In this document: positions 9,158 through 34,930 of the stretch, piece by piece | Position numbering within the stretch: the first letter of the stretch is position 1 | Layout of the letters: each line of letters begins with the position of its first letter | Sequence record: OQ718158.1 | Source: Escherichia phage vB_Ec-M-J | Length of the DNA stretch: 64,000 nt | Strand: one strand, 5' to 3' | Position numbers and translations under genes: made by a program | Notes under the pieces: model-generated | Told to the model about the DNA's origin: nothing | Seen by the model: the letters and a program-made list of their open reading frames with translations, nothing else | Databases searched by the model: none

Positions 9158-9179
9158 TAACTAAAAGGATTTATTTAAA

Positions 9180-10169
9180 ATGGCTAAAAAAATTAATGAA
9201 GCACAAGTTAAAATCGATATCGCAGGACTAGAATCTGAAGATCTAGAAACACTATCTCGTATGCTTGCACTAGCTGGTCAAGCCGAGCGTCAAGCTTCTC
9301 CTGTTGCTGCTCCAGTTCCTTCTATGGGGTCAATGACCCCTTCTCTACCACCAATCGCTCCACTCGATATGGATTCAATTGGTGCTGGTGCAGAAGAAGA
9401 AGTTGGTGGTTCAATGGATGGTGCAATTGATGCACCTGTTGAAGACCCATTAGAAGTTGCTGCTGACTCACTATCTGCTGAAGCTGGTGATTTTGGTGGT
9501 GATTCTGAAGAAGTAAGTATGGATGCAGAGTTCGAAGAGCCTGGTGTTGCAGATGAAGAAGAGTTTTCTTTAGATCTTTCCGGTCAACCTCAACTAGAAT
9601 CAGTTGAAGAAGAGGAAGAAGAAGAAATCATCGAAGAAGAATTCGATTTCAGTCGTATGCTATCTCTAGCTGGTCTTCAAGACGAACCAGAAGATGAATA
9701 TTCAGTAGAAGGTAACCCAGATACTGAAGTTAAAGTTGAAGAAAACACTTTCCTACCAGACCTAACCATCTCTGAAGATGAAGAACAAGGTGACAGTACT
9801 GATTTTGGACCTTACAACACTGAAGCTGATGCCGTTCGTGACGGTCAAGCTAAAACTAATGGTGTAGAAGGTGACCACTTTGTTGTTATTACCAAGGGTA
9901 ACAAGTTTTACTGGAGACGTGTCGTTGATGAAGATGTTGACAACCGTCCTGAACCAGAGTACTATGACAATGACGGTAACGAGAACCGTGTTCACAAATT
10001 TGAACCTAAGTTCCCAGGTACTGCTCTAGGTGACAACCCACTCAATGTTAATGAGAGTGATGAGTCCGTGGAAGGTAACGAAGAACTAGAAGATGAAAGC
10101 GATGAAGAAGTCGAAGACATTTTCGAAAGTCTCCAGAAGAAATATCAACAATTTCTAGGGGACAAATAA
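9180..10169 (+). CDS. highly acidic protein (Asp/Glu-rich; repeated SRMLxLAG motif)
   Basis: 329-aa ORF with AAAGGA Shine-Dalgarno; long E/D tracts (EEEEEEEIIEEEFDF); LSRMLALAGQ and FSRMLSLAGLQ both present. Confidence 0.7.
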   Translation: MAKKINEAQVKIDIAGLESEDLETLSRMLALAGQAERQASPVAAPVPSMGSMTPSLPPIAPLDMDSIGAGAEEEVGGSMDGAIDAPVEDPLEVAADSLSAEAGDFGGDSEEVSMDAEFEEPGVADEEEFSLDLSGQPQLESVEEEEEEEIIEEEFDFSRMLSLAGLQDEPEDEYSVEGNPDTEVKVEENTFLPDLTISEDEEQGDSTDFGPYNTEADAVRDGQAKTNGVEGDHFVVITKGNKFYWRRVVDEDVDNRPEPEYYDNDGNENRVHKFEPKFPGTALGDNPLNVNESDESVEGNEELEDESDEEVEDIFESLQKKYQQFLGDK

Positions 10170-19465: not shown

Positions 19466-19530
19466 ATAACTACCTCACTTGTTAAGATGGTGTCACCATA
19501 ATTGATGACACCGTTTTTTTATTATAATTA

Positions 19531-22500
19531 TTAAGCAGTACGTTGTGCAATGAACAAATCAGTAACTGGACTTACACCATCATAAATTACTTGGTAAATG
19601 GTCACGCTACCAGCAGTTTTGTTTAGTTCACCATCAACAACAGCATAAGTACCATCAGTTGTAAAGTTTCTGTTACCAGTTGCATCTTGTTTAACATAGA
19701 TGTATACTGATGCAGCTTTACCGCCACCAATTAGGCCAGTAATTGGAGCCAACGTGGTATCTTGGTCTAGAGTGATGAAGTATACGTTACTTGTACCATC
19801 TGGAGTCCATGTTCCGGTTGGAGCAATTACTGATGATGTAACTTGAGTTGGGATTACATCATACTTTTTGGTAGTTACTGTTGTAGTAGTTAAGTTAGCA
19901 TTAGTAGTGGTTAGTTCACCAGTCACTGTTACTGCCTTATCAAACACAGCATTTTCTTTAAATGATGAAGTTGCATTAACGGTTAGAACGTCAGCCGCTG
20001 CGTCACCTAATGTTACGTTACCATTCACAGTTAGTGCTCCACCTACTGTTGCGTTACCAGTAATGGATGCACTTGCAAGTGTAGCCAAACCTGATGTTGT
20101 AATTGTAGAAACGGTTGTTGCAGCGAATCCAGCAGTACCAGTTGCAGTGATATTGCCACCCACTGTTATGTTACCCGCAGTGGTCACTGCACCAGTGATA
20201 TTTGCACCACTTGACATAGTTACTAAACCACCAAATGAACCAGTAGTAGTAACTTCTAAAGTATTACCTTTAAGTAATCCAGTTGCAGTGATGGAAGTAC
20301 CAGCAGTAATTGCAGTACCTGCACTTAATGTGGTTCCAGCAGCTACGTTGTTAGCTGCAGTCAAAGACTTAACAGCTACATCGGAATCTGCTTGGTTCAA
20401 TTGTGCATTTAGTACGCCAGTAACAGTGAAGTTACCGTTGTTTACAACGTTACCATTAACGATTAGGTTGTTGTTTTGTGAACCGACTTCACCAATGGTT
20501 GCAGCCTTGGATATAAGTGATGCACCAGATGTAATATCACTTGCTGCCTGTATTGTTTGTTCGGCAACAATTGCATATGGTTCAATTGTTTGACCACTAA
20601 CATCAATATCAGCATTTATACCACCGTCAACACGCAAGGAACCTGCGATGAACGTATTTGGAAAAATCTGTACTGTTTCTGGGTTTTCACCAGTTTGTGT
20701 ACCAATTACAACATTTGCTCCAGTTTTCACTGCACCAGCAGTTGTGATAGAACCGAGTGTAGTAGCACCAGTTACTGATAGTGTTCCACCTATGGTTGCA
20801 TTGTTTGTTACTATTAAGCCAGTACCTGTACCATTAAAGGTAGACGATGGTGCTGAAATTGCACCAGTAACACCAAGAGAACCACCAACAGTTGCATTAC
20901 CATCTGAATGAATGGTTGTTGCGACAGAAATACTATTTGCAACAACATCAGTACTGGAAAGATCCAAACTACCAGGAGTTAATGTACCAGCAACAGTTAC
21001 ATCATCACTGAATGTAGCTGCACCAGTTACACCTAGTGTAGTACTAAAGTTACCGGATGTTGATGTAATACCAGATGTTACAATAGATCCCGCAGTTGCA
21101 GTTCCAGTTACATCAAGTGTTCCACCTATGGTTGCATTATTAGTAACAGATAGAGCAGTTCCTGAACCATTTAGTGTTACAGATGGAGCAGATACTACAC
21201 CAGTTACACCCAAATCGCCACCAACAGTTGTGTTACCGTCGGAATGCATGGTTGTTGCTACAGAAATACTATTTGCAGTAATATCAGATGATGCTAAATT
21301 CAAACCACCAGCAGGTGTAAATGTACCATTTACGGTTACATCCCCAGTAAAGGTTGAATCTCCTGACACATCAACTGTTGTTGTCGAAACACCACCATTT
21401 AAGTTTGTTAAACCAGTGACACTTAGTGTTCCACCAACCGTTGCGTTGTTGTTAACAGTTAAGCCAACACCTGGTCCAGTTAAGGACGCAGAAGGACTTG
21501 TTATTGCCCCACCAAAAGATGCAGTTCCAACAGAACTTATAGTTGTGGAAGATGATAATGATTTAACTTCAACATCAGATGCTGATAAATCAACACCACC
21601 ACTTGCAGTAAGTAATCCATCAACTTGTAAGGTTCCACCAAGTGTTGCTGCACCAGTACTAGATAGTGTATTTGTACTTACTGATGTTGCAGACAAACTA
21701 CCAGTATTAACAGTACCTAGTGTTGTTATGCCAGTTACGTTTAATGTACCATTTAAAACAGACGCCTTTGTAACAGACAAACTATCAATTGTAGCTGGAC
21801 CAGAAACATCGATAGTTTCTGCATCTAAACTACTTAATGTTGATGCACCAATTACATTAAGTGTTGTTGCAGCTTCTACACTGTTTACCACAAGATCAGC
21901 ACCAGCAAGATTCAAACCACCTTCTGGTATAAATTCACCTTTAACAGTTAATTTCTGAACAGTACTGTCACCTGAAATATCCAACGCAGATGCTGCTACG
22001 CCACCATTAAATGTACTTTGACCAGTAACTGCTAAAGTTGTTCCAACTGTTGCACTGTTTAGTGCTGCATTACCACTTATTGATGCGGCAGGTGCGGTTA
22101 TTGTACCTTCATCCAACTGCAACCCACCAGAAACAACTTGAACACCACCAGTTGCTACTGTAACTTTACCAGCGGTATTAACAGTACCAGATGTGGATAC
22201 TGCACCGACAAGAGTTGAAGTACCATTAACTGTCAAATTACCAGAAATTTCAGGACTACCAGTAACAATACCAGTTGTTAGAACCAAATCTCCACCAACA
22301 GTTGTTGAACCAGTACTTGCTAGTGTTGAAGCTGTGATATCAGCGGAACTTAGATCAATAGATCCATCAACACTAATATCCCCACCAACATGCACGTTTC
22401 CTAATGAATCTAACGATTTAACGGTCACATCAGTTGTGCTTAAGTCAATTATACCAGCAGTTAGTGTGCCAGATACAGCCAAATCACCAGTGATTGCAGT

Positions 22501-25497
22501 GCTTTTTGCAATTTCGATAGTATCATCAGCAGTTGTAATACTACCCACAGTTAGTGTACCGTTTATCGTTGCATTATTATCAACAACCAAACCTTCACCA
22601 ATAGCATTTAACGCAATACTAGTAGCAGTTACTTGAGTAGCTGATACACTCTGTAGTGTGCTATTTCCAGTTGCTTCAATGGTTGCTGCTCTAACCGAAC
22701 CAATTGTTGCATCTGTACTAATTAGTTTTGGTAAAGTACTTGAATTTACTGAATCACTTACTGTGATTACACCAGTACTATTAATGGTTTCAGCACTTGT
22801 TAGTGATTTAACAGTTACGTCAGCAGAACTAAGGTCAACTGTTCCTGATACAACTAAATCACCACCAATATTTGCACCTTCAGTTGTGGTAATTGATTTA
22901 GCATTAATATCAGTTGTTGCTAAGTCAATTGAACCAGGAGTTAAAACACCACTAACAGTTAGGTTACCTGTAATTGTTGTATCATTACTAATTTCAACAC
23001 CACCAGCATTAAAAATAACTGGCGTTTCAACAGAAATAGATTTCACATTACCACTTGCGACGACAGATGCTAATGAAGATGCTCCTGTAATATTTAAAGC
23101 AACACTGTTTGTTGTTGTAGCAGTTATAGTTCCAATACTTGCTTCAGTACTTGATAATTTAGGTAGAACACTAGTACCATTTAGATCATTACTAACGACT
23201 GGACCAGTACTTGTTAGTGATTTAACAGTTACATCTGCCGCACTAAGGTCAACTGTTCCTGATACAACTAAATCACCACCAATATTTGCACCCTCGGATG
23301 TGGCAATTGATTTAGCAGAAACGTCAGTTGTGCTTAGGTCAATTGAACCAGGAGTTACCGAACCACTTACTGTCAAGTTTCCATCAATTAAAGTATTATT
23401 TGTAATAGATACACCTGCTGGGTTAGAAATACTATCAGCTTGAACTACAACAGCAGTAACTTTACCAGAAGAATTTAAGTTAACAACACTAGAATTACCA
23501 CTAACTGTCAAATCTGTAATGGTTGCATCACTAACAGTTGCGTTTGTTGCAGTTAAATCAGTACTTGATAATTTAGGTAGAACACTAGTACCAGTTAGAT
23601 CATTACTAACGACTGGACCAGTACTGGTTAATGATTTAACAGTTACGTCTGCTGCACTCAAATCAACCACACCATCAACAGTTAAGTTACCATTAACAGT
23701 TACACCCTCTGTTACAGTTACAGACTTAGCAGCAACGTCAGTTGTGCTTAGGTCAATTGAACTAGGAGTTAGCGTTCCTTGAATAACAACATCATTTTCA
23801 AATGTGGTATTACCGGAAATTGTTGGCGAAGTTAATGTAGTTGTTGAAATTGAATCTGCACTTACGGAATCTGCACTTATTTCACCCGTTGATGTGATTT
23901 TTGGTGAAGTAATTTCAGTTGATGCTGAAATTGTTGGTGCTGAAACTAAAGTTGTTGCAGATACTGAATTTGAGTTAATAGTATTGGTATTTAGTACATT
24001 ACTAAGAACCATCGAACTACCATTAATTTCACCAGTTACACCAAGAGTTCCACCGATTGACGCATTACCAGTGCTTTCTAAGGTCACTGCTTTCACCAAT
24101 GTTGATGCATTAATCGAATTAGGAGTTAGGTCTTGACCACTTACATCAACAGTTAGGCCAGTTACTACACCAGTAAAGTCAACATCGTTTAAAATAGTCT
24201 TACCACCAACTCTTAGTTGTGGTGTGTTTGGGTCTTGTACCGCATTACCAGTAATTGTTAGGTAATCTAGTTTGTTTAGACCATTACCTGTGATACCGTA
24301 AGTAGCCAAAGATGCGTTACCAAAAGTTGCTGTTTTTAGAACATTTAATGTCGCTGGAGAAACAACTTCAGATTGTATTTCGTTTTGTAGTATTACTGTT
24401 GGACGTAAACCAGTACCAGTATATGCAAACGAAATTCTAGCAGCCGGATCTGCTACGTTTTGTCCTAAACTTACTGCTTTAAGTGTCGCAGTACTATTAA
24501 AACCAGTAATGTTACCACCTAAAGATACAGCACCACCTAATGAAGATGTACCAGAAACATTTAATGTTAGTGCGTTCAAATCATCCAATTGGAATGTACC
24601 ACCTAATGTTCCAGCGATATTAATATCATTAAAGTTTGCAGTACCTGAACTTTCGATATTAGGAATGGTTGCAGTTCCAGTTACTTCAAAATCATGAACT
24701 TTAGTTTTTCCAGATTTTACCTCCAACAATGGTGTTGTTGGGTCTTGAACAGCATTACCTGAAACTGTCAAGTAATCTAGTTTGTTTAGACCATTACCAG
24801 TGATACCATATGTTGAAAGTGATGCGTTACCAAATGATGCAGTAGAAAGAACTGTCAATTTTGCTGGTGACATCAACTCTGATTGAATTTCGTTTTGTAA
24901 TAGTACAGTTGGTCTTTGACCAGGAACAGTATAGCCAAAGTTAAGTCTATACGCTTGACCTGCCGCATCCGGTCCAATACGAACATCACGGAAGTTTGCA
25001 GTACTGTTTATACCAGTAATGTTTGCACCCAACGTAACTGCACCTTGTAGACCAGTAGTCCCAGACACATTAAGTGTTGTAGCATTAATATCAGAAAGAT
25101 TAAAAGTACCACCAAGTGTACCAGAAATGTTTACATCTTTAAAAGTTGCTGTGCCAGTTGAAGTAATATCAGTTGATTCAACAGAATCAAATGATCCTGA
25201 ATTAGCTTCTAAGTTATCAAATTTTGCAGTTGTTCCGACAGCAGCAGTAATGTTTCCTGCAAATGTCGCAGCACCTGAAACATCAGCACCAGCGGATAAG
25301 GTTGCCTTACCAGCAACATCCAATGTACCTGTGACATTCACAGTACCAGCGGTAATTGCAGTGAATACTGCGTTAGCAAAAGACACTTCCCCATTAACCG
25401 TTAGGTCATTACTGAATACTGCATTACCTTTGACCAAAAGATCCTTACCTACCGTGGAATTACCAGATACGTCAAGATCCGTTTTAATCGAGTACAT
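19531..25497 (-). CDS. giant repetitive tail fibre protein (1988 aa)
   Basis: ATG with AGGAGGGG Shine-Dalgarno; T/G/S/V/N-rich with multiple internal tandem repeat modules; paralogous to ORFs 27418-30567 and 25647-27395. Confidence 0.8.
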   Translation of the reverse strand: MYSIKTDLDVSGNSTVGKDLLVKGNAVFSNDLTVNGEVSFANAVFTAITAGTVNVTGTLDVAGKATLSAGADVSGAATFAGNITAAVGTTAKFDNLEANSGSFDSVESTDITSTGTATFKDVNISGTLGGTFNLSDINATTLNVSGTTGLQGAVTLGANITGINSTANFRDVRIGPDAAGQAYRLNFGYTVPGQRPTVLLQNEIQSELMSPAKLTVLSTASFGNASLSTYGITGNGLNKLDYLTVSGNAVQDPTTPLLEVKSGKTKVHDFEVTGTATIPNIESSGTANFNDINIAGTLGGTFQLDDLNALTLNVSGTSSLGGAVSLGGNITGFNSTATLKAVSLGQNVADPAARISFAYTGTGLRPTVILQNEIQSEVVSPATLNVLKTATFGNASLATYGITGNGLNKLDYLTITGNAVQDPNTPQLRVGGKTILNDVDFTGVVTGLTVDVSGQDLTPNSINASTLVKAVTLESTGNASIGGTLGVTGEINGSSMVLSNVLNTNTINSNSVSATTLVSAPTISASTEITSPKITSTGEISADSVSADSISTTTLTSPTISGNTTFENDVVIQGTLTPSSIDLSTTDVAAKSVTVTEGVTVNGNLTVDGVVDLSAADVTVKSLTSTGPVVSNDLTGTSVLPKLSSTDLTATNATVSDATITDLTVSGNSSVVNLNSSGKVTAVVVQADSISNPAGVSITNNTLIDGNLTVSGSVTPGSIDLSTTDVSAKSIATSEGANIGGDLVVSGTVDLSAADVTVKSLTSTGPVVSNDLNGTSVLPKLSSTEASIGTITATTTNSVALNITGASSLASVVASGNVKSISVETPVIFNAGGVEISNDTTITGNLTVSGVLTPGSIDLATTDINAKSITTTEGANIGGDLVVSGTVDLSSADVTVKSLTSAETINSTGVITVSDSVNSSTLPKLISTDATIGSVRAATIEATGNSTLQSVSATQVTATSIALNAIGEGLVVDNNATINGTLTVGSITTADDTIEIAKSTAITGDLAVSGTLTAGIIDLSTTDVTVKSLDSLGNVHVGGDISVDGSIDLSSADITASTLASTGSTTVGGDLVLTTGIVTGSPEISGNLTVNGTSTLVGAVSTSGTVNTAGKVTVATGGVQVVSGGLQLDEGTITAPAASISGNAALNSATVGTTLAVTGQSTFNGGVAASALDISGDSTVQKLTVKGEFIPEGGLNLAGADLVVNSVEAATTLNVIGASTLSSLDAETIDVSGPATIDSLSVTKASVLNGTLNVTGITTLGTVNTGSLSATSVSTNTLSSTGAATLGGTLQVDGLLTASGGVDLSASDVEVKSLSSSTTISSVGTASFGGAITSPSASLTGPGVGLTVNNNATVGGTLSVTGLTNLNGGVSTTTVDVSGDSTFTGDVTVNGTFTPAGGLNLASSDITANSISVATTMHSDGNTTVGGDLGVTGVVSAPSVTLNGSGTALSVTNNATIGGTLDVTGTATAGSIVTSGITSTSGNFSTTLGVTGAATFSDDVTVAGTLTPGSLDLSSTDVVANSISVATTIHSDGNATVGGSLGVTGAISAPSSTFNGTGTGLIVTNNATIGGTLSVTGATTLGSITTAGAVKTGANVVIGTQTGENPETVQIFPNTFIAGSLRVDGGINADIDVSGQTIEPYAIVAEQTIQAASDITSGASLISKAATIGEVGSQNNNLIVNGNVVNNGNFTVTGVLNAQLNQADSDVAVKSLTAANNVAAGTTLSAGTAITAGTSITATGLLKGNTLEVTTTGSFGGLVTMSSGANITGAVTTAGNITVGGNITATGTAGFAATTVSTITTSGLATLASASITGNATVGGALTVNGNVTLGDAAADVLTVNATSSFKENAVFDKAVTVTGELTTTNANLTTTTVTTKKYDVIPTQVTSSVIAPTGTWTPDGTSNVYFITLDQDTTLAPITGLIGGGKAASVYIYVKQDATGNRNFTTDGTYAVVDGELNKTAGSVTIYQVIYDGVSPVTDLFIAQRTA
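22380..23790 (-). repeat. in-frame tandem repeats (~420-nt unit, about three copies) inside the giant fibre gene
   Basis: Near-identical nucleotide blocks around 22800-22940, 23220-23360 and 23630-23770, encoding ...TPSSIDLSTTDV...VDLSAADVTVKSLTS... modules. Confidence 0.7.
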
Positions 25498-25646: not shown

Positions 25647-27395
25647 TTATACACGTTGTGCAACGAAGGTATCAAACACAGTACTGAAACCATCATAGAT
25701 TACTTGGATAATACTTGTTTGACCAACTACAGCACTTACTGTACCAGAAACTACAGAGTATGCACCACCGAAGGTGAAAGTAGTATCAGCAACAGTTGGA
25801 GTTACATAGATATACACTGAACATGCTTGACCACTACCAATTAGACCCGCGATGGAATCCATTGTAACACTTTGGTCAAGAGTTAAGCGATATACGTTAG
25901 TAGTACCATCTGGTGTCCAAGTACCACCTACAGCAGCAGTAGAAGCAGTAACACTAGCAGGGATAACAGAATATTTCTTAGTTACCATGTTGTTTGTAGT
26001 GAAGTTTGCAGTGGTGGTGTTAATAGAACCAGTCACTGTTAGGTTCTTATCAAATGTTGCGTTCTCTTTAAATGTAGATGTTGCATTTACAGTTAAAGTA
26101 TCAGCAGCAGCATCACCAATCACAGTGTTACCATTTGCAGTTAATGTACCACCTACAGTTAGAGCACCAGTTACAGATGCACTTGCAAGGGTAGCTAAAC
26201 CTGATGTTGTAATGGTAGAAACGGTTGTTGCACCGAATCCAGCAGTACCAGTTGCAGAGATATTACCACCTACTGTTAGGTCACCAGCAGTGATACCAAC
26301 AGTACCAGTGATGTTTGCACCACTTGACATAGTTACTGCACCACCAAATGAACCAGTAGTGGTGACTTCTAACGAATTACCTTTTAGTAAGCCTGATGCA
26401 GTGATGGATGTTCCAGCAGTGATTGAAGTACCAGCCGCAACGTTATTAGTTGCAGTTAAAGATTTAACAGCTACATCGGAATCTGCTTGGTTCAATTGTG
26501 CATTTAGTACACCAGTAACGGTGAAGTCACCATTAGTTACTACGTTACCATTAACAGTTAGGTTGTTGTTTTGTGAACCAACATCACCAATTGTTGCAGC
26601 TTTAGAAACGATGGTTGCACCAGAAGTAATGTTACCAACAGCAGATAGTGTTGCAGCAGCTTCAATTGCATATGGTTCTAGTGTTTGACCACTTACGTCG
26701 ATTTCAGCGTTAATACCACCGATTACACGCAATTTACCAGCAATATAAGTATCTGGAATGATCTGTACAGTTTCAGGTTGTTCACCAACTGGAGTACCAA
26801 CAGTTAGGGTTGTACCAGTTTTCACTGCACCAGTAGCTGTTAGTGAAGATACAGTAGTTGCACCAGTAACACCTAGAGTTCCAGTTACACCCAAATTACC
26901 ACCAACTGATGCGTTTGCAGTAGAAGTTAAACTTCCAACAGTTGCTAGACCAGATGCAGTCACAGTAGAAGTACTAACACCACCACTTAGAGTACTTAGG
27001 CCAGTTGCATTGATAGTTGTCGCAGTAGTTAGACTATTAGCAGTAATGTCTGCACCGCTTAGGTCAAGACCACCTTGTGGGATCAATTCACCTTGGACAG
27101 TTAGTTTCTGAACAGTACTGTCACCAGAAACTGTTAGTGATGTCGCAGATACACCTGCTAGAGTAGAAGCACCAGTTACACCTAAAGTTCCAGTAATGGA
27201 AGTTCCTGCTAGAGTAGAAGCACCAGAAACGTTAATTGTGTTAGTATTGATACCACCATCAACTACCTGAATACCACCAGTACTCACTGTTACTTTCTTA
27301 CCGATATTAACAATATCAGTTAGGTTAACAGCACCAGTTACACCAAGAGTTCCACCGATTGTTGTATTACCAGAGATAGCTGGGCTACCAGTCAC
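25647..27395 (-). CDS. C-terminal part of the second tail-fibre paralog (frameshift-split)
   Basis: Track start is GTG without a Shine-Dalgarno. The frame is open upstream to a TAG at 27435-27437 and encodes QVVGTDLVLTTGVVTGSPAISG, collinear with the middle of the 1988-aa fibre. The whole 582 aa aligns with the C-terminal ~580 aa of that fibre. Confidence 0.7.
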   Translation of the reverse strand: MTGSPAISGNTTIGGTLGVTGAVNLTDIVNIGKKVTVSTGGIQVVDGGINTNTINVSGASTLAGTSITGTLGVTGASTLAGVSATSLTVSGDSTVQKLTVQGELIPQGGLDLSGADITANSLTTATTINATGLSTLSGGVSTSTVTASGLATVGSLTSTANASVGGNLGVTGTLGVTGATTVSSLTATGAVKTGTTLTVGTPVGEQPETVQIIPDTYIAGKLRVIGGINAEIDVSGQTLEPYAIEAAATLSAVGNITSGATIVSKAATIGDVGSQNNNLTVNGNVVTNGDFTVTGVLNAQLNQADSDVAVKSLTATNNVAAGTSITAGTSITASGLLKGNSLEVTTTGSFGGAVTMSSGANITGTVGITAGDLTVGGNISATGTAGFGATTVSTITTSGLATLASASVTGALTVGGTLTANGNTVIGDAAADTLTVNATSTFKENATFDKNLTVTGSINTTTANFTTNNMVTKKYSVIPASVTASTAAVGGTWTPDGTTNVYRLTLDQSVTMDSIAGLIGSGQACSVYIYVTPTVADTTFTFGGAYSVVSGTVSAVVGQTSIIQVIYDGFSTVFDTFVAQRV

Positions 27396-27417
27396 AACAC
27401 CAGTTGTTAGTACTAGA

Positions 27418-30400
27418 TCAGTACCAACAACTTGCTAGACTTGCAGCTACAAGGTTAGTTGCACTTAAGTCGAATGCACCATCTACAGTTAGGTTACCAG
27501 CAATGTGTGCGTTACCTAGTGAATCAAGAGATTTAACGGTTACATCAGTATTGCTTAGGTCGATTGAACCAGCAGTTAGTGTGCCAGATACAGCTAAATC
27601 ACCAGTGATTGCAGTATTTTTTGCAATATTAAGAGAAGCAGCAGTTGTTGTTAAAGAACCAACAGTTGCAATGCCACCAACAGATAATGCACCACCAACG
27701 TTTGCATCATTATCAACTTGAAGACCAAGGCCACCACCAGAAAATTCAGCACTATTAGCAGTTACTTGAGTAGCTGATACACTTTGTAGTACACTGTTGC
27801 CAGTTGCATTAATAGTACCTGCATTTACTGTAAAGAGTGTTGCATCAGTTGAAGTAATTTTAGGTAACGAACTAGTATTGGTTGAATCGGTAACGGTAAT
27901 AACACCAGCACTTGTAATTGTCTCTGCACTTGCAAGAGATTTCACAGACACATCAGCAGCACTTAGGTCAAAAGTACCATCAACTACTAAGTTTCCACCA
28001 ACATTAACATCAGCAGTAGTAGTTAGTGAGTTTGCAGTAATATCAACAGTTGTTAGATCAAGACCACCTTCAGGTTTGAATACACCAGTGACAGTTAGAT
28101 CTTTTGCCGCGACAACATTACTTGCTAGATTTAGTGTACCAGCACCAGCAGCTTCAGCTTGTAAAGTTGGAACTGTTACAGAAGTTGTGATTGTTGCAGT
28201 ACCAGAAGACAAACGCGAACCAGATACTACACCAGTACTAGTTAGTGTTCCTACTTTCGCTGCACCAGTAGTAGTTAGTGTGCCACCTGAAACGTCACCA
28301 GTTGCGGCAACAGAAGATGCATTAATTACACCAAATGTACTTGGGTTAGTTGCACTAACTGATTTTGTTACTACATCAGCAGCAGACAAATCAATAGCAC
28401 CAGTTACTGCAAGAGAACCACCAACAGTTACGTTACCAGTAGTTGTTAAAGAAGCAGCACTTACATCAGTAGTGCTTAAATCTATACTACTCGGAGTTAG
28501 TGTTCCAGTAATAGTTACGTTATTAGCAAAAGTAGTGTCACCAGTAATACTTGGAACAGTTAGTGAAGCCATAGAGCCAGCACCAGTTACTGCAAGAGAA
28601 CCACCAGATAGTGCACCAGCCGCAGTTACTGTATTACCAGATACAGACGCACCAGTAACATCACCAGTACTGGTTACTGAACTAGCAGTTAGGCCAGCTA
28701 AAGTAGTGTCCCCAGCAACAGATAGTGTTGTTGTAACATCAACTTTATTTGGGGCGATATCAAGACCATCAACATCAGCTTGGGCAGTTACACCAGTAGT
28801 TGTACCAGTTACTACTAAATCACGTACAGTTACAGTTTGACCAGTAACGCTAACATCACCACTGAAAGTACCTTTAGCAGCACTTACATCACCAGTGAAG
28901 GTAGCAGCAGTACCAGTTAGTGCACCAACAACATTAGCAGTTCCACCAACTTGTAGGTTAGTTCCTACTGTGGTTTGACCAACTGATTCAAGGGTTTGAC
29001 CTTTGATTGCTTCAGCAGCATCTACTGATTTAGGAGTTAGATCTTGTCCACTCACATCAACAGTTAGACCAGTTACAGTACCAGTGAATTCAACATCATT
29101 TAGTACTGATTTACCAGCAACTTGTAGTTGTGGGGTAGCTGGACTTTGTGTACCATTACCAGTAATAGATAGATAATCTAGTTTGTTTAGACCGTTACCT
29201 GTGATACCATAGGTTGCAAGAGATGCATCACCAAAGGTTGCAGTTTTTTGTACATTAAGTACTGCTGGAGATACTAGCTCAGACTGAATTTCATTTTGTA
29301 GAATTACAGTTGGACGTGCACCAGGGGCAGAATAAGCAAAACCATACTTAACGTTAGCATCGGCGGCGTTTTGTCCTAAACTTACTGCTTTAAAATTAGC
29401 AGTACTATTAGCACCGGAAATATCAGCACCTAAAGTTACACCACCAACAAGGCTAGTTAAACCGGATACAGTTAGTGTGTTTGCTTCAATATCATCAAGA
29501 CTGAAAGTACCACCGAGTGTACCAGATACGTTGATGTTATTAAAATTAGCAGTACCAGTACTTTCAATGTTAGGAATAGTTGCAGTTCCTGTTACTTCGA
29601 AATCATGAACTTTAGTTTTACCTGAAGTTACTTGTAATAGTGGAGTTGTTGGATCTTGAACAGAGTTACCAGATACTGTTAGGTAATCTAGTTTGTTTAG
29701 ACCATTACCAGTAATACCAAAAGTGGATAGTGACGAATCACCAAAAGATGCAGTTTTCAATACACTTAGGGTAGCTGGAGACATCAATTCTGATTGGATT
29801 TCGTTCTGTAGAATTACAGTTGGACGAAGACTTGGAGCAGAATAGTTAAAGCTCAAACGGTAGTTAGTGTTTGCAGCATTGGAACCAATTTTAATATCAC
29901 GGAAGTTTGCACTACTATTCACACCAGTAATGTTGGAACCTAATGTAACACCACCTTGTAGACTGGTTAAACCAGAAACAGTTAGAGTTGTTGCATTAAC
30001 ATCAGATAGACTAAATGTTCCACCTAGTGTACCGGAAATATTCACATCTTTAAAGTTTGCAGTTCCAGTTGATGTGATATCAGTAGTTGCAGTGTTTGTG
30101 AATGTTGCATCAGTTGCAGTTATTTTGTCAAATGCTGCGGTAGTGCCAGTTTCAGCAGTAATATTACCTTTAAATGAAGAAGTTCCAAGAACATCCATTG
30201 ATGCCACTTGGGTATCTTTTAGTACAGCAGTGCCAGCGGTTTGTGTTAGGTTACCTGCCATTGATACTGGGCTTTGGAATTGTGCATTAGAATTAATCGT
30301 TGCAGTATCAGAACCAACAGGCAAATTACCAATTACGGAATTACCATGAACTTCAATTCCACCATTCAATGATGCTTTACCAGCAACATCTAGTGTAGAT

Positions 30401-30567
30401 GAAATGTCTACAGTTTCTGCTTCAATTGCAGTGAATACAGCGTCAGCAAAAGTTACAGTTCCATTAACTGTTAGATTTTTATTGAATACTGCATCACCTT
30501 TCACAAGAAGATCTTTAGCAACCGTTGCACCACCAGTTATATCGAGATCTGTTTTAATCGAGTACAT
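27418..30567 (-). CDS. N-terminal part of the second tail-fibre paralog (1049 aa)
   Basis: ATG with GGAGGG Shine-Dalgarno; N-terminus MYSIKTDLD... matches the 1988-aa fibre. Ends ...SLASCWY* exactly where the homolog continues ...LASTGSTTVGG... Confidence 0.8.
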   Translation of the reverse strand: MYSIKTDLDITGGATVAKDLLVKGDAVFNKNLTVNGTVTFADAVFTAIEAETVDISSTLDVAGKASLNGGIEVHGNSVIGNLPVGSDTATINSNAQFQSPVSMAGNLTQTAGTAVLKDTQVASMDVLGTSSFKGNITAETGTTAAFDKITATDATFTNTATTDITSTGTANFKDVNISGTLGGTFSLSDVNATTLTVSGLTSLQGGVTLGSNITGVNSSANFRDIKIGSNAANTNYRLSFNYSAPSLRPTVILQNEIQSELMSPATLSVLKTASFGDSSLSTFGITGNGLNKLDYLTVSGNSVQDPTTPLLQVTSGKTKVHDFEVTGTATIPNIESTGTANFNNINVSGTLGGTFSLDDIEANTLTVSGLTSLVGGVTLGADISGANSTANFKAVSLGQNAADANVKYGFAYSAPGARPTVILQNEIQSELVSPAVLNVQKTATFGDASLATYGITGNGLNKLDYLSITGNGTQSPATPQLQVAGKSVLNDVEFTGTVTGLTVDVSGQDLTPKSVDAAEAIKGQTLESVGQTTVGTNLQVGGTANVVGALTGTAATFTGDVSAAKGTFSGDVSVTGQTVTVRDLVVTGTTTGVTAQADVDGLDIAPNKVDVTTTLSVAGDTTLAGLTASSVTSTGDVTGASVSGNTVTAAGALSGGSLAVTGAGSMASLTVPSITGDTTFANNVTITGTLTPSSIDLSTTDVSAASLTTTGNVTVGGSLAVTGAIDLSAADVVTKSVSATNPSTFGVINASSVAATGDVSGGTLTTTGAAKVGTLTSTGVVSGSRLSSGTATITTSVTVPTLQAEAAGAGTLNLASNVVAAKDLTVTGVFKPEGGLDLTTVDITANSLTTTADVNVGGNLVVDGTFDLSAADVSVKSLASAETITSAGVITVTDSTNTSSLPKITSTDATLFTVNAGTINATGNSVLQSVSATQVTANSAEFSGGGLGLQVDNDANVGGALSVGGIATVGSLTTTAASLNIAKNTAITGDLAVSGTLTAGSIDLSNTDVTVKSLDSLGNAHIAGNLTVDGAFDLSATNLVAASLASCWY

Positions 30568-30676: not shown

Positions 30677-30685
30677 CTATTTTTT

Positions 30686-31585
30686 TTATTTACCGGAAAT
30701 TACTATTTTACCACTAAACGCTTCGTCAGAAGTGAATGTAACATTACCACTTGCATCAATTTGAGTTTCGGTTATTACCAGTTCAAATGGTGATGCTGCT
30801 GTACTGCCTGGTGTTTTATTTGAATATATAGAAATATACAAATTGTCAGGTGTTTGGTTATGTTCTGACGCTGGAACAGTAATGGTGTAATCATCACCAG
30901 ATGCTACCCAATCTGCTATATTAATTAATTTACTATAAGGTACTGTCATTGTTGTTGCTCCTATGATGTTGACTTTGACACTTGTGTATTCAGTGATTTG
31001 ACCAATAACATCAATCGTAATGTCACCAATACCACTCACAGTGACGTTAGTTTGGAATACAGTGTCAAGTGGGATGTTACCAGGATCACCCTGTAGCTGA
31101 ACCATAATATCTGGACCACGACCATGTACTGATTCAGGTAAAGAATAAGTATATTGATCTGTTGTTCCAGGAACTAATGTAAATGCCGATACAGGAACGA
31201 TTTCAGTAGTAACGTAAGAACTATCAGTACCTGGAGTTGTGCTTTGGAGAGGCTTCCAAACACCAAGGTCTTTAATATAGATCTGAATAATATTAGTACT
31301 GTCAACTAAGAAGTAAGCGTCACCATCTACACCGATTGATTCAGATGGTGCAATAGTTCCACGTAAAATACCGGAACCACCACCACCACCGCTATGTGTA
31401 TTCAAATAACCCAATGTAACCAAGTGTGTATTTGCGATTGGGTCACCTGCTGAAACAGGAAGAAGTTGTGTACCCGTGTAGTTCTGGATTTGAACAACAT
31501 TACCATTAGTGGCAATTTGTGCACCATTTTTACCAAGTATGAAGGTCTTCTTCATGGTTCCTTCTAAATTAGAAAAAACTGCCAT
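30686..31585 (-). CDS. receptor-binding protein with shared N-terminal anchor (MAVFSNLEGTM...)
   Basis: 299-aa ORF with AGGAGA Shine-Dalgarno; first ~60 aa paralogous to ORF 32660-33742; poly-Gly linker HSGGGGGSG. Confidence 0.7.
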   Translation of the reverse strand: MAVFSNLEGTMKKTFILGKNGAQIATNGNVVQIQNYTGTQLLPVSAGDPIANTHLVTLGYLNTHSGGGGGSGILRGTIAPSESIGVDGDAYFLVDSTNIIQIYIKDLGVWKPLQSTTPGTDSSYVTTEIVPVSAFTLVPGTTDQYTYSLPESVHGRGPDIMVQLQGDPGNIPLDTVFQTNVTVSGIGDITIDVIGQITEYTSVKVNIIGATTMTVPYSKLINIADWVASGDDYTITVPASEHNQTPDNLYISIYSNKTPGSTAASPFELVITETQIDASGNVTFTSDEAFSGKIVISGK

Positions 31586-31599
31586 TTTTATAATCTCCT

Positions 31600-32655
31600 T
31601 TAAGATAGGGTGATATATGTTATTGGTTGAGCAGCTTTCAATAATGCCCCTGCTGCGGTAGCAGTAACAATCGGATCGGCAATATCGATACGATACGCAT
31701 TATTAACAACATAAACTGCTCTAGTGATATATGTTTTTAAATCTTCGCCATTTTCCCCTGCTCCTGTGATTAGGATTTCGGTTCCAGCAGCTTTAGCATA
31801 TTGATTATCACCCCATGATACACCCAATGCTTCGATATAAGTTTGTCCTGCAACTGTTTGTCTAATTGTGTCATATCGACCAAAGAAAGAACCACCTACT
31901 GTAACAATAAATTTTCCACCTGATTGTTTATGGATAATTGTTCCTGCTGGGAAATATCTCCCACCAGGAAAAACATCATAAGGCACGTAATACTGTTCAA
32001 CTACAGGTATTACTACAGGTCCACGATGACCCGTTCCATCAATTGCAGTGGTTACTTTAAAGTTATTAGATGATTGGTCAATACGGTCAACATACATTCT
32101 TGAGAAACTATATTTTGATATGTTACAATCATCTTGAACAACACAATTAGTCCAGTTGGTATATGTATATTTAGAGCGAGTATATAAGCCCCCTCCTTCA
32201 CCTTCAGTTGCAAGGTGTTGTCCAATAACATCAAGTTCTTTAGTACTGATATTATTAAACTTGGAAGATGACGGCAATCCACGCCATTGAATTCTACTAC
32301 ATGTAATATTAGAAAGTTCAGTAGTATTTAGCCAATTATCAGAGCCTGAAGTATACACAATAATAGACGACTCAGGAATGTGGAGATTACATAATTTAAA
32401 GTTTCGTGGAGGACCAGCAAATTTACCAGATGTTACGCCCCAGTTAATAGAAACCATACGGTTAGTTACTGATGGATCATTTAATAGATGCCCAGATAGG
32501 CCATCAATAATAAAATCAACAGAACCATAAGTAATTACACCAGCGGTTGTCAAACCAGTACCAATTGATACCAACGTTGATGGATAAACTTCATTATTGA
32601 GAATTTTAAAGTCTTTACCCAACTCAACGTGAATACATTGACGGACATTGTACAA
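31600..32655 (-). CDS. probable C-terminal continuation of the tailspike/depolymerase (frameshift-split at an A8 run)
   Basis: Track start is TTG without a Shine-Dalgarno; frame open upstream into the A8 run (plus-strand T8 at 32677-32684); beta-rich composition. Confidence 0.6.
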   Translation of the reverse strand: MYNVRQCIHVELGKDFKILNNEVYPSTLVSIGTGLTTAGVITYGSVDFIIDGLSGHLLNDPSVTNRMVSINWGVTSGKFAGPPRNFKLCNLHIPESSIIVYTSGSDNWLNTTELSNITCSRIQWRGLPSSSKFNNISTKELDVIGQHLATEGEGGGLYTRSKYTYTNWTNCVVQDDCNISKYSFSRMYVDRIDQSSNNFKVTTAIDGTGHRGPVVIPVVEQYYVPYDVFPGGRYFPAGTIIHKQSGGKFIVTVGGSFFGRYDTIRQTVAGQTYIEALGVSWGDNQYAKAAGTEILITGAGENGEDLKTYITRAVYVVNNAYRIDIADPIVTATAAGALLKAAQPITYITLS

Positions 32656-32659
32656 GCGG

Positions 32660-33742
32660 TTATTTTTTATAACGAATTTTTTTTACATATTGTGAATCAT
32701 CAGCATTCACATCATAAGGACCAGAACCTGCAACACCGATACCAATACCCCAGTTTGAAAGAGGAATTGGTGCATTTGTACCATCTACGTTTTCAATCAA
32801 GTTACCTTCTATTACAAATCCGTCTGGGTAATGTGAGTTGACTACGTTCAATTCAATTGCATCACCATATATATCATGGATGTGGTTGTATGAATAACGC
32901 CCAACGGTCATTTTCTCACCAGTGCCTTGCTGAAGAACACCGTACTTACATTGTGTCATTTCATTAAAGCAGAAGTCGATAGTACCTGATTCAGTCATAC
33001 CTTGCATTAGAAATGCAGCAGTACTTGTAATATTAATAAATTTATTAAAATAAAATTTACCATTACCACCAAAGAATTTTAAATAACATCCTGTTAATGT
33101 TGCTTGTTGGATTGTACTATTCAGTACCGATACCATTGTGCCACCGTTACCAGTGATTGTACCACCAAACCATTGAATATCATTCAAATAAACAGCAGTT
33201 CTGATACGATAATTACCACCAGCTTGAATTTGGATTTTGTGTTCTTTAGCATAAACTGCACATGCGTTAACCGCCGCCGTGTCATCAGTGATGCCATCAC
33301 CTTTTGCACCAAACTCTTCTGGAGTTATGTAAAACTGTGCCTGTTGAAGTGTTCCTCCAGTAATAAGTCCGATATAATCAGCACCGTTAACACTGGAAAG
33401 GACATTTTTATTAATGTATAATGATTTTACCCAAACATCATTTGTTTTTGCAAAGATATCAACAATACCCTCAGAATCAACTTGAAAATAAGTGTTGTTA
33501 TTTTTACCAATGTCATTTGTTGGTGGAAGTACGCCAAATAAAGCATTTGGGTTATCTTCAAGATACCTAACGTTTACTGCGGAATCATCGTCATTAGGAG
33601 TTCCCACCTTAACAGGTAGGAACGTTTCGCCTAAAAAGTCTTTGATTGCGACAGAATCGTTTACAAAATTAATAGAAGCACCACGTTTACCCAACTTGAA
33701 TGTTGGCATCATGGTCCCTTCTAAATTGGAAAAAACTGCCAT
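32660..33742 (-). CDS. tailspike N-terminal part: shared anchor plus pectate-lyase-superfamily depolymerase motif
   Basis: ATG with AGAGGG Shine-Dalgarno; N-terminus MAVFSNLEGTMMPTF... shared with ORF 30686-31585; EEFGAKGDGITDDTAAVNA is the signature start of right-handed beta-helix pectate-lyase-type depolymerases; ends in the A-run ...YVKKIRYKK*. Confidence 0.75.
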   Translation of the reverse strand: MAVFSNLEGTMMPTFKLGKRGASINFVNDSVAIKDFLGETFLPVKVGTPNDDDSAVNVRYLEDNPNALFGVLPPTNDIGKNNNTYFQVDSEGIVDIFAKTNDVWVKSLYINKNVLSSVNGADYIGLITGGTLQQAQFYITPEEFGAKGDGITDDTAAVNACAVYAKEHKIQIQAGGNYRIRTAVYLNDIQWFGGTITGNGGTMVSVLNSTIQQATLTGCYLKFFGGNGKFYFNKFINITSTAAFLMQGMTESGTIDFCFNEMTQCKYGVLQQGTGEKMTVGRYSYNHIHDIYGDAIELNVVNSHYPDGFVIEGNLIENVDGTNAPIPLSNWGIGIGVAGSGPYDVNADDSQYVKKIRYKK

Positions 33743-33756
33743 TTATCAACCCTCTT

Positions 33757-34884
33757 TTAAATGTTATCTTGAATAGGCTGAATAGGTGCTTGCCATGATA
33801 AAGTACAAACGATCTTCATTTCACCAAATGAACTGTTGTTTACGGAATCATTGAATACACAAGAAATGATTTCATCTTTACTTGATACTTCGTGGTTGGT
33901 TTCGTTAACAATGTAACGCATTTTGCGGTTGATATCGAAATAATCAACAGGTGCAATTACAGTACCACCAATATCTTCTTGTGCTTCACCACCGAAACGT
34001 ACAAACATTTCATTTACTGGTTCATCATATGCTTGGTTAATATCAACTTCGATATTAGTTACTAGGTATCCAGCAGGGCATGTACCAATAACTAACAATG
34101 CGTTAGTCCATGAATGATCAATAGTGTTGATGATAACAACTGTATCTTTACCTGGTTCACCCTGAATACCTTGTTCACCTTGCTTACCTTCTTCACCGTC
34201 TTTTCCACGGAATAAGATACCAGCACTCCACTCTTTAGTTGGGGTTGATGATGTAGTTACGATATCGACATAATACAAATTACCATCTGTCGTGTTATAG
34301 AAGCAATAATCTTGTGGTAGATTATCAATGCTTGGGAATTGACTACCAGTACTATCAATATGGAAACGACCACGTAGACCTTGTTCACCACGGAAAGGAA
34401 TACCATCACTCCATGTTGCAGTTACGCTTTGATAGAAATATAATTTACCATCTTCAGTATTATAGAATGTGTAATTATTGAAAAGACCAGTTGTTGGAAA
34501 CACCGTACCAGAACTGTCAATGTGGAATGGTTTACCAGTTTCACCAGTATCGCCTTTACCAAACTCTACACGGTTCCAAGTACTAATTGCTTCTTGTGCA
34601 TCGTTTGATTTAAAATATAAAGTACTAGTGCCATTTGCAAGACTAAGATAACACCACCCTAGTTCTTCACCAACACGGAAGAGTTCATTAGGAACTTCAA
34701 AACCTATCTCATTTGGATAAAAGTTTCTACCGTTAGCACCATTTTGTCCAACCACTAGACCTAGGTCTTGGATTGTATTGTCGGAATAGGTTACAATTAA
34801 ATGTCCAGCAGCGTTAATAACTAAACTTTTGATGCCAGAATTATTACATGAACCACCTGACCCATTGTTGAATGAAATTGTCAT
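33757..34884 (-). CDS. tail fibre-like protein with a short collagen-like Gly-X-Y segment
   Basis: Track start 34920 is TTG and would cover the promoter-like motif; ATG 34884 has an AAGGGA Shine-Dalgarno. Contains GKDGEEGKQGEQGIQGEPGKD and duplicated ...LYFYQSV...W..GI.FRG.QG modules. Confidence 0.65.
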   Translation of the reverse strand: MTISFNNGSGGSCNNSGIKSLVINAAGHLIVTYSDNTIQDLGLVVGQNGANGRNFYPNEIGFEVPNELFRVGEELGWCYLSLANGTSTLYFKSNDAQEAISTWNRVEFGKGDTGETGKPFHIDSSGTVFPTTGLFNNYTFYNTEDGKLYFYQSVTATWSDGIPFRGEQGLRGRFHIDSTGSQFPSIDNLPQDYCFYNTTDGNLYYVDIVTTSSTPTKEWSAGILFRGKDGEEGKQGEQGIQGEPGKDTVVIINTIDHSWTNALLVIGTCPAGYLVTNIEVDINQAYDEPVNEMFVRFGGEAQEDIGGTVIAPVDYFDINRKMRYIVNETNHEVSSKDEIISCVFNDSVNNSSFGEMKIVCTLSWQAPIQPIQDNI

Positions 34885-34907
34885 AATATTTCCCTTGTAT
34901 GAGTTAA

Positions 34908-34930
34908 TGTCATATACCAATATTTATCAG
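34908..34930 (-). promoter_or_regulatory. late-promoter-like motif TAAATATtgGTATATGAC (minus strand)
   Basis: About 24 nt upstream of ATG 34884. Confidence 0.35.

Follow-up and report, generated by a model that had tools for sequence, protein, structure and literature searches.

According to a preprint (PMC12633550), homopolymers of at least six bases serve as contingency loci in several phages, T-even phages included, where reversible ±1 frameshifts occur in ~1e-4 to 1e-3 of reads and revert ~1000-fold faster than point mutants. In two such loci, T2 agt and T4 rIIA, ±1 replication slippage in a coding A-run is reported to produce a reversible null allele with increased frequency (PMC12633550). 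Among receptor-binding enzymes, the tailspike gp150 of phage phi92 hydrolyses the beta-1,4 Glc-Fuc linkage of colanic acid, according to a passage of PMC13450770 that cites Xu et al. 2025. Here, we describe a gp150-type colanidase tailspike gene whose reading frame is broken at an A-run, on the minus strand of a 64,000-nucleotide (nt) stretch of Escherichia phage vB_Ec-M-J (OQ718158.1; the whole stretch is referred to below as the window). The window phage is an Asteriusvirus of the 121Q/PBECO4 group of ~350-kb E. coli jumbo phages. The locus comprises one gene carrying one additional A that is private to the window; the break falls inside a folded domain, and conservation of the tract is lacking. 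Lesions of this class, homopolymer ±1 frameshifts, are well known, and no new mechanism or family is involved. It resembles T2 agt and T4 rIIA in that ±1 slippage in a coding A-run would generate a reversible null allele; in contrast to the contingency loci of that preprint, the tract of the window is not conserved beyond one subclade, and it is known here from a consensus sequence.

The tailspike gene and its frame break

The features of the locus are as follows (aa, amino acids; ORF, open reading frame; A8, a run of eight A residues, and likewise for other lengths and bases).

31600..33742, minus strand: colanidase (colanic-acid-degrading) tailspike gene, frameshifted into 360 + 351 aa; orthologue of Ecwhy1_205, 121Q gp573 and phi92 gp150.
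33413..33742, minus strand: N-terminal module of ~110 aa, presumed to serve in virion attachment; outside the gp150 crystal construct, the gp150 alignment starting at residue 96.
32209..33310, minus strand: predicted right-handed parallel beta-helix, ~aa 145–510 of the repaired protein, with the frame break at aa 354/355 inside it.
33742..32660, minus strand: ORF1, 360 aa, containing EEFGAKGDGITDDTAAVNA.
32684..32677, minus strand: A8 homopolymer (plus-strand T8 at 32677–32684), the lesion; one A more than the A7 of all close relatives.
32660..32676, minus strand: tail that the extra A puts out of frame; final base of the first mis-framed codon (ATT), followed by R Y K K and TAA.
32662..32660, minus strand: premature stop TAA.
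32655..31600, minus strand: ORF2, 351 aa, with a TTG start.
32653..32655, minus strand: TTG given as the ORF2 start codon; in fact, a Leu codon in the interior of the gene (..NNR L YNVRQC..) without a Shine-Dalgarno sequence.

We compared this locus with those of eight close relatives (Ecwhy_1, fEgEco12, EC.P1, WPEC5, WPEC3, TH47, BF17 and Turkey3), which come from seven countries or sources, with at least six countries among them, and are 98.7–100% identical to the window. In all eight, as well as in 121Q, a single coding sequence (CDS) of 2142 nt lies between the same neighbours; its annotation reads either 'colanic acid-degrading protein' or 'tailspike protein'. The Asteriusvirus orthologues (Ecwhy1_205, 121Q gp573, PBECO4, BF17 QXN76294 and the Turkey3 'tailspike protein') have the locus, the neighbours and the 713-aa length in common with the window gene, and 121Q gp573 shows 87% amino-acid identity to the repaired window protein. 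Deletion of one A from the window gene restores an uninterrupted ORF of 713 aa, a tailspike of normal size, in agreement with a first-pass annotation, made from the sequence alone, that had anticipated a fusion of ~710 aa.

On the minus strand, the sequence at the break reads ...GAT GAT TCA CAA TAT GTA AAA AAA ATT CGT TAT AAA AAA TAA CCGC TTG TAC AAT..., so that the stop codon of ORF1 follows Q Y V K K I R Y K K, whereas the in-frame junction of the repaired protein is ..SQYVKKFVIKNNR.. in place of ..YVKKIRYKK. The frame of ORF2 is open back to 32682 and is bounded by the TAA at 32685..32683. The T8 at 32677–32684, the stop within ORF1, the open frame, and the TTG start of ORF2 that lacks a Shine-Dalgarno sequence, all of which the first-pass annotation had listed, were found again in the sequence. 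An uninterrupted frame, as a complete enzyme would have, is absent from the window, where A8 leads to a premature TAA once 360 aa have been encoded; in its present form, the gene is a frameshifted copy, either a pseudogene or an error.

The repaired 713-aa protein matched phi92 gp150 (PDB 6E0V/6E0W) with an E value of 4e-233 and 57% identity. Its residues 96–712 aligned to residues 11–623 of the gp150 chain in one stretch, unbroken at the junction (window DSQYVKKFVIKNNRLYNVRQCIHVE; gp150 DSQYVRNFSIVGNRVYNCRQCLHVE). Because homology extends over the full length across the junction, the locus is a real gene with a 1-nt indel; and because the gp150 alignment runs through the junction, the TTG is an internal leucine codon and I-R-Y-K-K is an out-of-frame tail. 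Consistently, the bases 32660..32676, when read in the frame of ORF2, give F V I K N N, which is conserved with F S I V G N of gp150, and the Leu of the TTG aligns to V in 'GNRVYNCRQC' of gp150. The first-pass annotation had proposed a single tailspike gene that is divided into the two ORFs at the A-run. This proposal is borne out, the gene being single in the relatives and its alignment to gp150 unbroken.

The fold gave a similar picture. In the AlphaFold model of the BF17 orthologue, which is 99% identical, the predicted local distance difference test score (pLDDT) has a mean of 82. A beta-helix spans residues ~145–510 of this model, with pLDDT values above 90 along its length. In the blocks that flank residue 355, pLDDT is 90–97, with strands at 333–338, 356–359 and 362–366, and the best Foldseek match of the model was 6e0v_A (E value 3e-62, TM 0.65/0.76). 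Because the helix of this model is continuous across residue 355, the break is predicted to cut a single folded domain between consecutive rungs.

The description 'pectate-lyase-type' in the first-pass annotation is appropriate as a fold class and inappropriate as a family. PF12708, the pectate-lyase-like family of Pfam, scored 22.3 bits for ORF1 and 17 bits for the repaired protein, below its cut-off of 27, with the match limited to positions 6–90 of the 213 in the profile. This resemblance lies at the level of the fold and the N-terminal cap and falls short of family membership. The gene is, moreover, an orthologue of the gp150 colanidase, which is a reported hydrolase. Since a local Pfam scan returned only sub-threshold PF12708 and PF12218 matches, and no match to PF27800, the family assignment rests on the sequence match in PDB and on the fold match. 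By both sequence and modelled fold, the gene is assigned to the phi92 gp150 colanidase tailspike family as an orthologue-level member. We retrieved 49 database homologues, the best 45 of which carry a precomputed PF27800 assignment. These homologues align as single polypeptides to more than half, and mostly to 80–100%, of the repaired protein, with the exception of the last five entries (P0045–P0049), whose matches are weak, short or partial; the split architecture was found in none of the 49.

The window tailspike and phi92 gp150 share the same beta-helix and C-terminal domain fold. They differ in that the N-terminal ~95–110 aa are specific to Asteriusvirus, that gp150 is intact whereas the window gene is frameshifted, and that activity on colanic acid has been reported for gp150 only and is predicted by homology for the window protein. 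The N-terminal ~110-aa module also occurs in a 299-aa gene at 31585..30686 (minus strand; 32% identity, E value 1e-19); the shared module, which starts with MAVFSNLEGTM, spans 33413–33742 and 31256–31585, both on the minus strand. It is probably, judging from this similarity, an adaptor or attachment domain that is shared by proteins with distal receptor-binding parts of different kinds.

We also considered the possibility that the locus contains two genuine genes, whose N- and C-terminal products would be made separately and assemble as a two-chain spike. In favour of such an arrangement, the two ORFs lie side by side and are long, with 360 and 351 aa. However, ORF2 starts with TTG, and the 30 nt on its 5' side (TAAAAAAAATTCGTTATAAAAAATAACCGC) contain no Shine-Dalgarno sequence; the neighbouring ATG-start genes that we checked have strong motifs of the AAGAGG, AAGGAG, GGAGG, AGGAGG or GAGGA type 6–9 nt before the ATG. 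A scan for promoters and terminators around the junction detected nothing above the shuffled expectation, leaving ORF2 without a promoter-like signal above chance, and no terminator was present on the coding strand. In addition, the stretch from the run to the TTG, read in the frame of ORF2, encodes residues (F V I K N N R) that are conserved with gp150, the cut would fall between consecutive rungs of one beta-helix, and no homologue is split. We regard two separate genes as extremely improbable.

The A-run in relatives and the question of recoding

We then compared the run itself among the genomes. All eight close relatives have A7 (GTAAAAAAATTC) at this site, and A8 was observed only in the window. 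With one A removed, the window gene is identical to that of Ecwhy_1 at 2142 of 2142 positions, with zero other differences. Relative to 121Q, the dN/dS value (nonsynonymous to synonymous substitution) in the repaired frame was 0.095 for codons 1–354 and 0.05 for codons 355–713. As judged from these sequence comparisons, both halves are under strong purifying selection in a single repaired frame. The 121Q clade has GTC AGA AAC TTT at the run site and phi92 gp150 has V-R-N-F, both without a run; the A7 (GTA AAA AAA TTC, V-K-K-F) arose in the Ecwhy_1 subclade by R-to-K and N-to-K changes. At the genomic G+C content of 37%, AAA-AAA is the expected coding of K-K. Any one-base deletion within 32682–32660, including one in the A6 at 32668..32663, would also fuse the two frames. 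We examined this A6 as the altered site and rejected it, as it is A6 in all intact relatives.

These comparisons bear on programmed recoding, which the first-pass annotation had offered as one explanation. In this case A8 would be native, and programmed +1 frameshifting or transcriptional slippage would yield a 40-kDa anchor fragment and a 78-kDa spike in a constant ratio. The run A8 would indeed allow the lysine tRNA (tRNA-Lys) to re-pair in the +1 frame (AAA to AAA), and RNA polymerases can slip on A/T runs (PMC1088944, PMC6260861). However, a passage of PMC6260861 states that E. coli RNA polymerase slips noticeably only on runs of 7 or more T, or on still longer runs of A, a length requirement that argues against this explanation; selection against slippery runs typically appears at ~9 nt (PMC1088944). 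The two-frame architecture was present in no homologue (eight A7 relatives, 121Q and 49 database proteins), and neither the 121Q clade nor phi92 gp150 contains the slippery run. The shift that rejoins the halves is +1 (or –2) and not the canonical –1, which reads K K N S L and then a stop, a dead end after 5 codons. The A-site codon, AUU, is neither rare nor a stop. The RNA folding energy of the 92 nt downstream of the run did not differ from that of shuffled sequences (z = –0.48; no excess structure), and an Rfam search downstream of the run returned no match. Accordingly, the locus lacked every property of a recoding site that we tested, namely a conserved two-frame layout, a conserved slippery sequence, and a stimulator or a productive frame. 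Programmed ribosomal slippage is contradicted by the lack of a two-frame homologue, the unconserved run, the wrong direction of the shift and the missing stimulator; we give it a very small probability, and programmed slippage is effectively excluded.

A second explanation in the first-pass annotation was phase variation, in which selection would keep the A7/A8 tract as a reversible on/off switch of the colanidase, populations would hedge their bets by producing virions with and without the spike, and the sequenced stock would have been caught in the OFF state. Poly-G switches are known in receptor-binding genes of Campylobacter phages. The tract of the window likewise sits in a receptor-binding enzyme, a ±1 change there toggles the frame, and A7 is kept in all 8 members of the subclade. 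Against this, the tract is young, being absent from the 121Q clade and from phi92 gp150; AAA-AAA is what K-K coding would be expected to use at this G+C content; nothing marks this run out among the 37 coding A/T runs of at least 6 bases in the window; and 8 of the 9 sampled genomes are ON, with no other length variant found. The repeat was neither conserved beyond the subclade nor over-represented, and it did not vary in length among the eight close relatives, as that of an evolved switch would. With A7 in 8/8 relatives and a recent, unconserved tract, phase variation gained no positive support, and we consider such a switch unlikely by a wide margin. A bolder version would hold that the subclade recently gained the K-K (AAA AAA) run, that populations cycle between spike-plus and spike-minus states, and that a neighbouring fibre gene, described below, was silenced independently, so that the adsorption apparatus is rapidly remodelled by frameshift toggling; we mention it as a speculation with little probability.

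Origin of the extra A

Beyond the three explanations of the first-pass annotation, a spontaneous and recent frameshift (null) mutation is the simplest biological option. Our preferred reading, to which we assign about an even chance, is that the extra A is a real null ('off') allele that arose by replication slippage and became fixed in the sequenced stock. The main competitor is an artefact of sequencing or assembly, in which the phage DNA would have A7 and an intact gene, and the eighth A would be a base-calling or polishing error in the deposited consensus; we take this to be a serious possibility, though one that falls short of even. A real mutation is slightly favoured over a sequencing error.

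The case for an artefact starts from the nature of the change, since +1 in an A7 run is a classic error class, and the gene is otherwise identical at 2142/2142 positions to the intact Ecwhy_1 orthologue, with A7 in 8/8 relatives. A further argument is provided by the record CMSTMSU (MH494197, UNVERIFIED_ORG), the only other split copy of the gene, which has homopolymer errors at this very site, namely A6 and A5 where the relatives have A7 and A6. The gene and the site are the same as in the window, and the colanidase gene is annotated there as fragments. However, CMSTMSU is damaged throughout, with 7 CDS fragments overlapping the stretch fetched around the colanidase gene, whereas the window contains only one coding run-length change in 64 kb. 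In the fetched stretch of MH494197 (251–1938), the colanidase is annotated as a series of small 'hypothetical proteins', and 'flagellar hook-length control protein' is the name given to the fibres. CMSTMSU is obviously a homopolymer-error-laden assembly that puts fragment proteins into databases.

We searched for other copies of the A8 allele. The exact 360-aa truncated product was not on record in a 153-billion-gene index. Exact-pattern scans found neither the A8 nor the A7 allele in IMG/VR, nor either of them in the JGI metagenomes, and are uninformative. The A8 allele was thus not met in any other assembly covered by the gene index and the IMG/VR and JGI scans, which an artefact would explain. 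Since exact look-ups of the 360-aa product and of two fibre products of 1049 aa and 1988 aa gave no record, no twin assembly was found in which the length of the A-run could be compared. A literature search on Asteriusvirus tailspike frameshifts returned nothing relevant.

We next evaluated the quality of the window. Compared with Ecwhy_1, four homopolymer-length differences were detected in ~60 kb at 99% identity, three of which are intergenic:

18680, intergenic: A6, A7 or A8 across the clade.
37254, intergenic: T6, T7 or T8 across the clade.
19514–19521, intergenic: T7 in the window only; T8 in six relatives.

Position 30680 was listed as a further site among the intergenic A/T runs. The change at 19521 is another private run-length change in the window and, as such, is a point in favour of an artefact. 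On the other hand, the intergenic runs vary naturally within the clade, so that changes in run length are often real here. Of the 37 coding A/T runs of at least 6 bases, the other 36 (7 of them with at least 7 bases) carry no frameshift, and of the ~40 Ecwhy_1 genes that lie fully inside the window, all are intact except the tailspike and a 1644-aa fibre gene. The window is not a noisy assembly. Among runs of at least 7 bases, 5/13 fall in the ~3% of the window that is non-coding. As the tailspike has 1/8 of the coding A/T runs of at least 7 bases, a random homopolymer error would hit it in only ~1 of 8 cases.

The second broken gene is the following:

25647..30567, minus strand: 1644-aa 'long tail fiber proximal subunit' (Ecwhy1_207 orthologue), broken into ORFs of 1049 aa (30567..27418) and 582 aa (27395..25647).

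Only the 299-aa gene separates it from the tailspike. Its lesion, at ~27418–27438, consists of a 14-nt deletion and one substitution, placed at ~27423–27430, and does not lie in a homopolymer (Ecwhy_1, ...GCAAGT ACTGGTTCTACTAC TGTTGGAACT...; window, ...GCAAGT TGTTGGTACT...). At the protein level, LASTGSTTVGTDLVL is changed to LASCWY and a stop. This lesion is private to the window, the gene being intact in 6/6 relatives checked. A second broken gene nearby, also receptor-binding and with a change that is no homopolymer error, counts against an artefact. As such a lesion is hard to obtain as a base-calling error, a biological cause is the more likely one for both. We suppose that relaxed or positive selection for the loss of dispensable spikes, together with plaque-purification bottlenecks, may have led to both lesions.

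Several observations nevertheless weigh against a real null allele. Homopolymer miscalls are the commonest assembly error. The window is known as a consensus without reads, so that an A7 may have been miscalled as A8, and CMSTMSU shows the same type of artefact at the same site (A6, A5). That the gene has not decayed any further would be expected of an artefact just as much as of a very recent mutation, and the private intergenic change at 19521 may be another small error of the homopolymer type. The 14-nt fibre deletion, for its part, is circumstantial evidence.

Under the null-allele reading, the A7 tract (GTA AAA AAA TTC) would have gained one A by a very recent +1 slippage private to the window genome, in a type of tract that is known for hypermutability. 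Translation would leave the frame inside the beta-helix and stop 5 codons later. The resulting 360-aa fragment would keep the attachment module and about half of the enzyme, or beta-helix, and lack the C-terminal domain, and it would be very unlikely to fold into an active trimeric spike. Because there is no ribosome-binding site, the downstream 351 codons would remain essentially untranslated. Three points of this reading are inferred: the phage DNA itself, and not just the assembly, carries the extra A; the truncated product has no function; and there is leaky expression. At most, trace amounts of the full-length protein might be produced by RNA-polymerase slippage (A8 to A7) or by +1 re-pairing of tRNA-Lys on A8. 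The allele may have become fixed by plaque purification, or by propagation on a host where the spike is dispensable, and would be expected to revert readily to A7.

For annotation, the locus should be recorded as one frameshifted colanidase tailspike gene (a pseudogene or a sequencing error), and neither as two proteins nor as a recoding site. If both lesions are real, the isolate has lost two of several receptor-binding proteins. It would then not degrade colanic acid capsules, which is relevant to host-range work or therapy, and would illustrate in nature, on a small scale, the ease with which multi-spike jumbo phages lose spikes that they can do without.

Fibre genes and other features of the window

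With regard to the broken 1644-aa fibre gene, gene conversion or misassembly from a paralogous fibre was examined as the cause of the lesion and rejected, as the short form has no template in the window or in the fetched loci. The 1049-aa fragment was not on record in the large gene index by exact look-up.

The fibre gene of 1988 aa (19531–25497, minus strand) contains a stretch, 20745–24119, in the distal and central part of the fibre, without a close match in Ecwhy_1, and the matches of fEgEco12, 5 joined pieces that cover 86% of the query, reach further into the gene than those of Ecwhy_1. This stretch looks like a mosaic fibre segment, and the pattern of sequence matches is consistent with an exchange of receptor-binding modules within the clade. 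The exact 1988-aa protein was likewise not on record in the large gene index.

In the structural gene at 9174–10166, a GAA repeat at ~9627 (plus strand) has four units in the window and five in Ecwhy_1, an in-frame difference of 3 nt. From this alignment, the difference is assigned to a trinucleotide-repeat length polymorphism in a virion protein gene.

Finally, for the gene at 33757–34920 (minus strand), the start in the ORF list is a TTG at 34920, for a product of 387 aa, and the orthologue has 375 aa. An ATG at 34884 has a ribosome-binding site, AAGGGAAA, just upstream, and 34884 is probably the true start of this gene.

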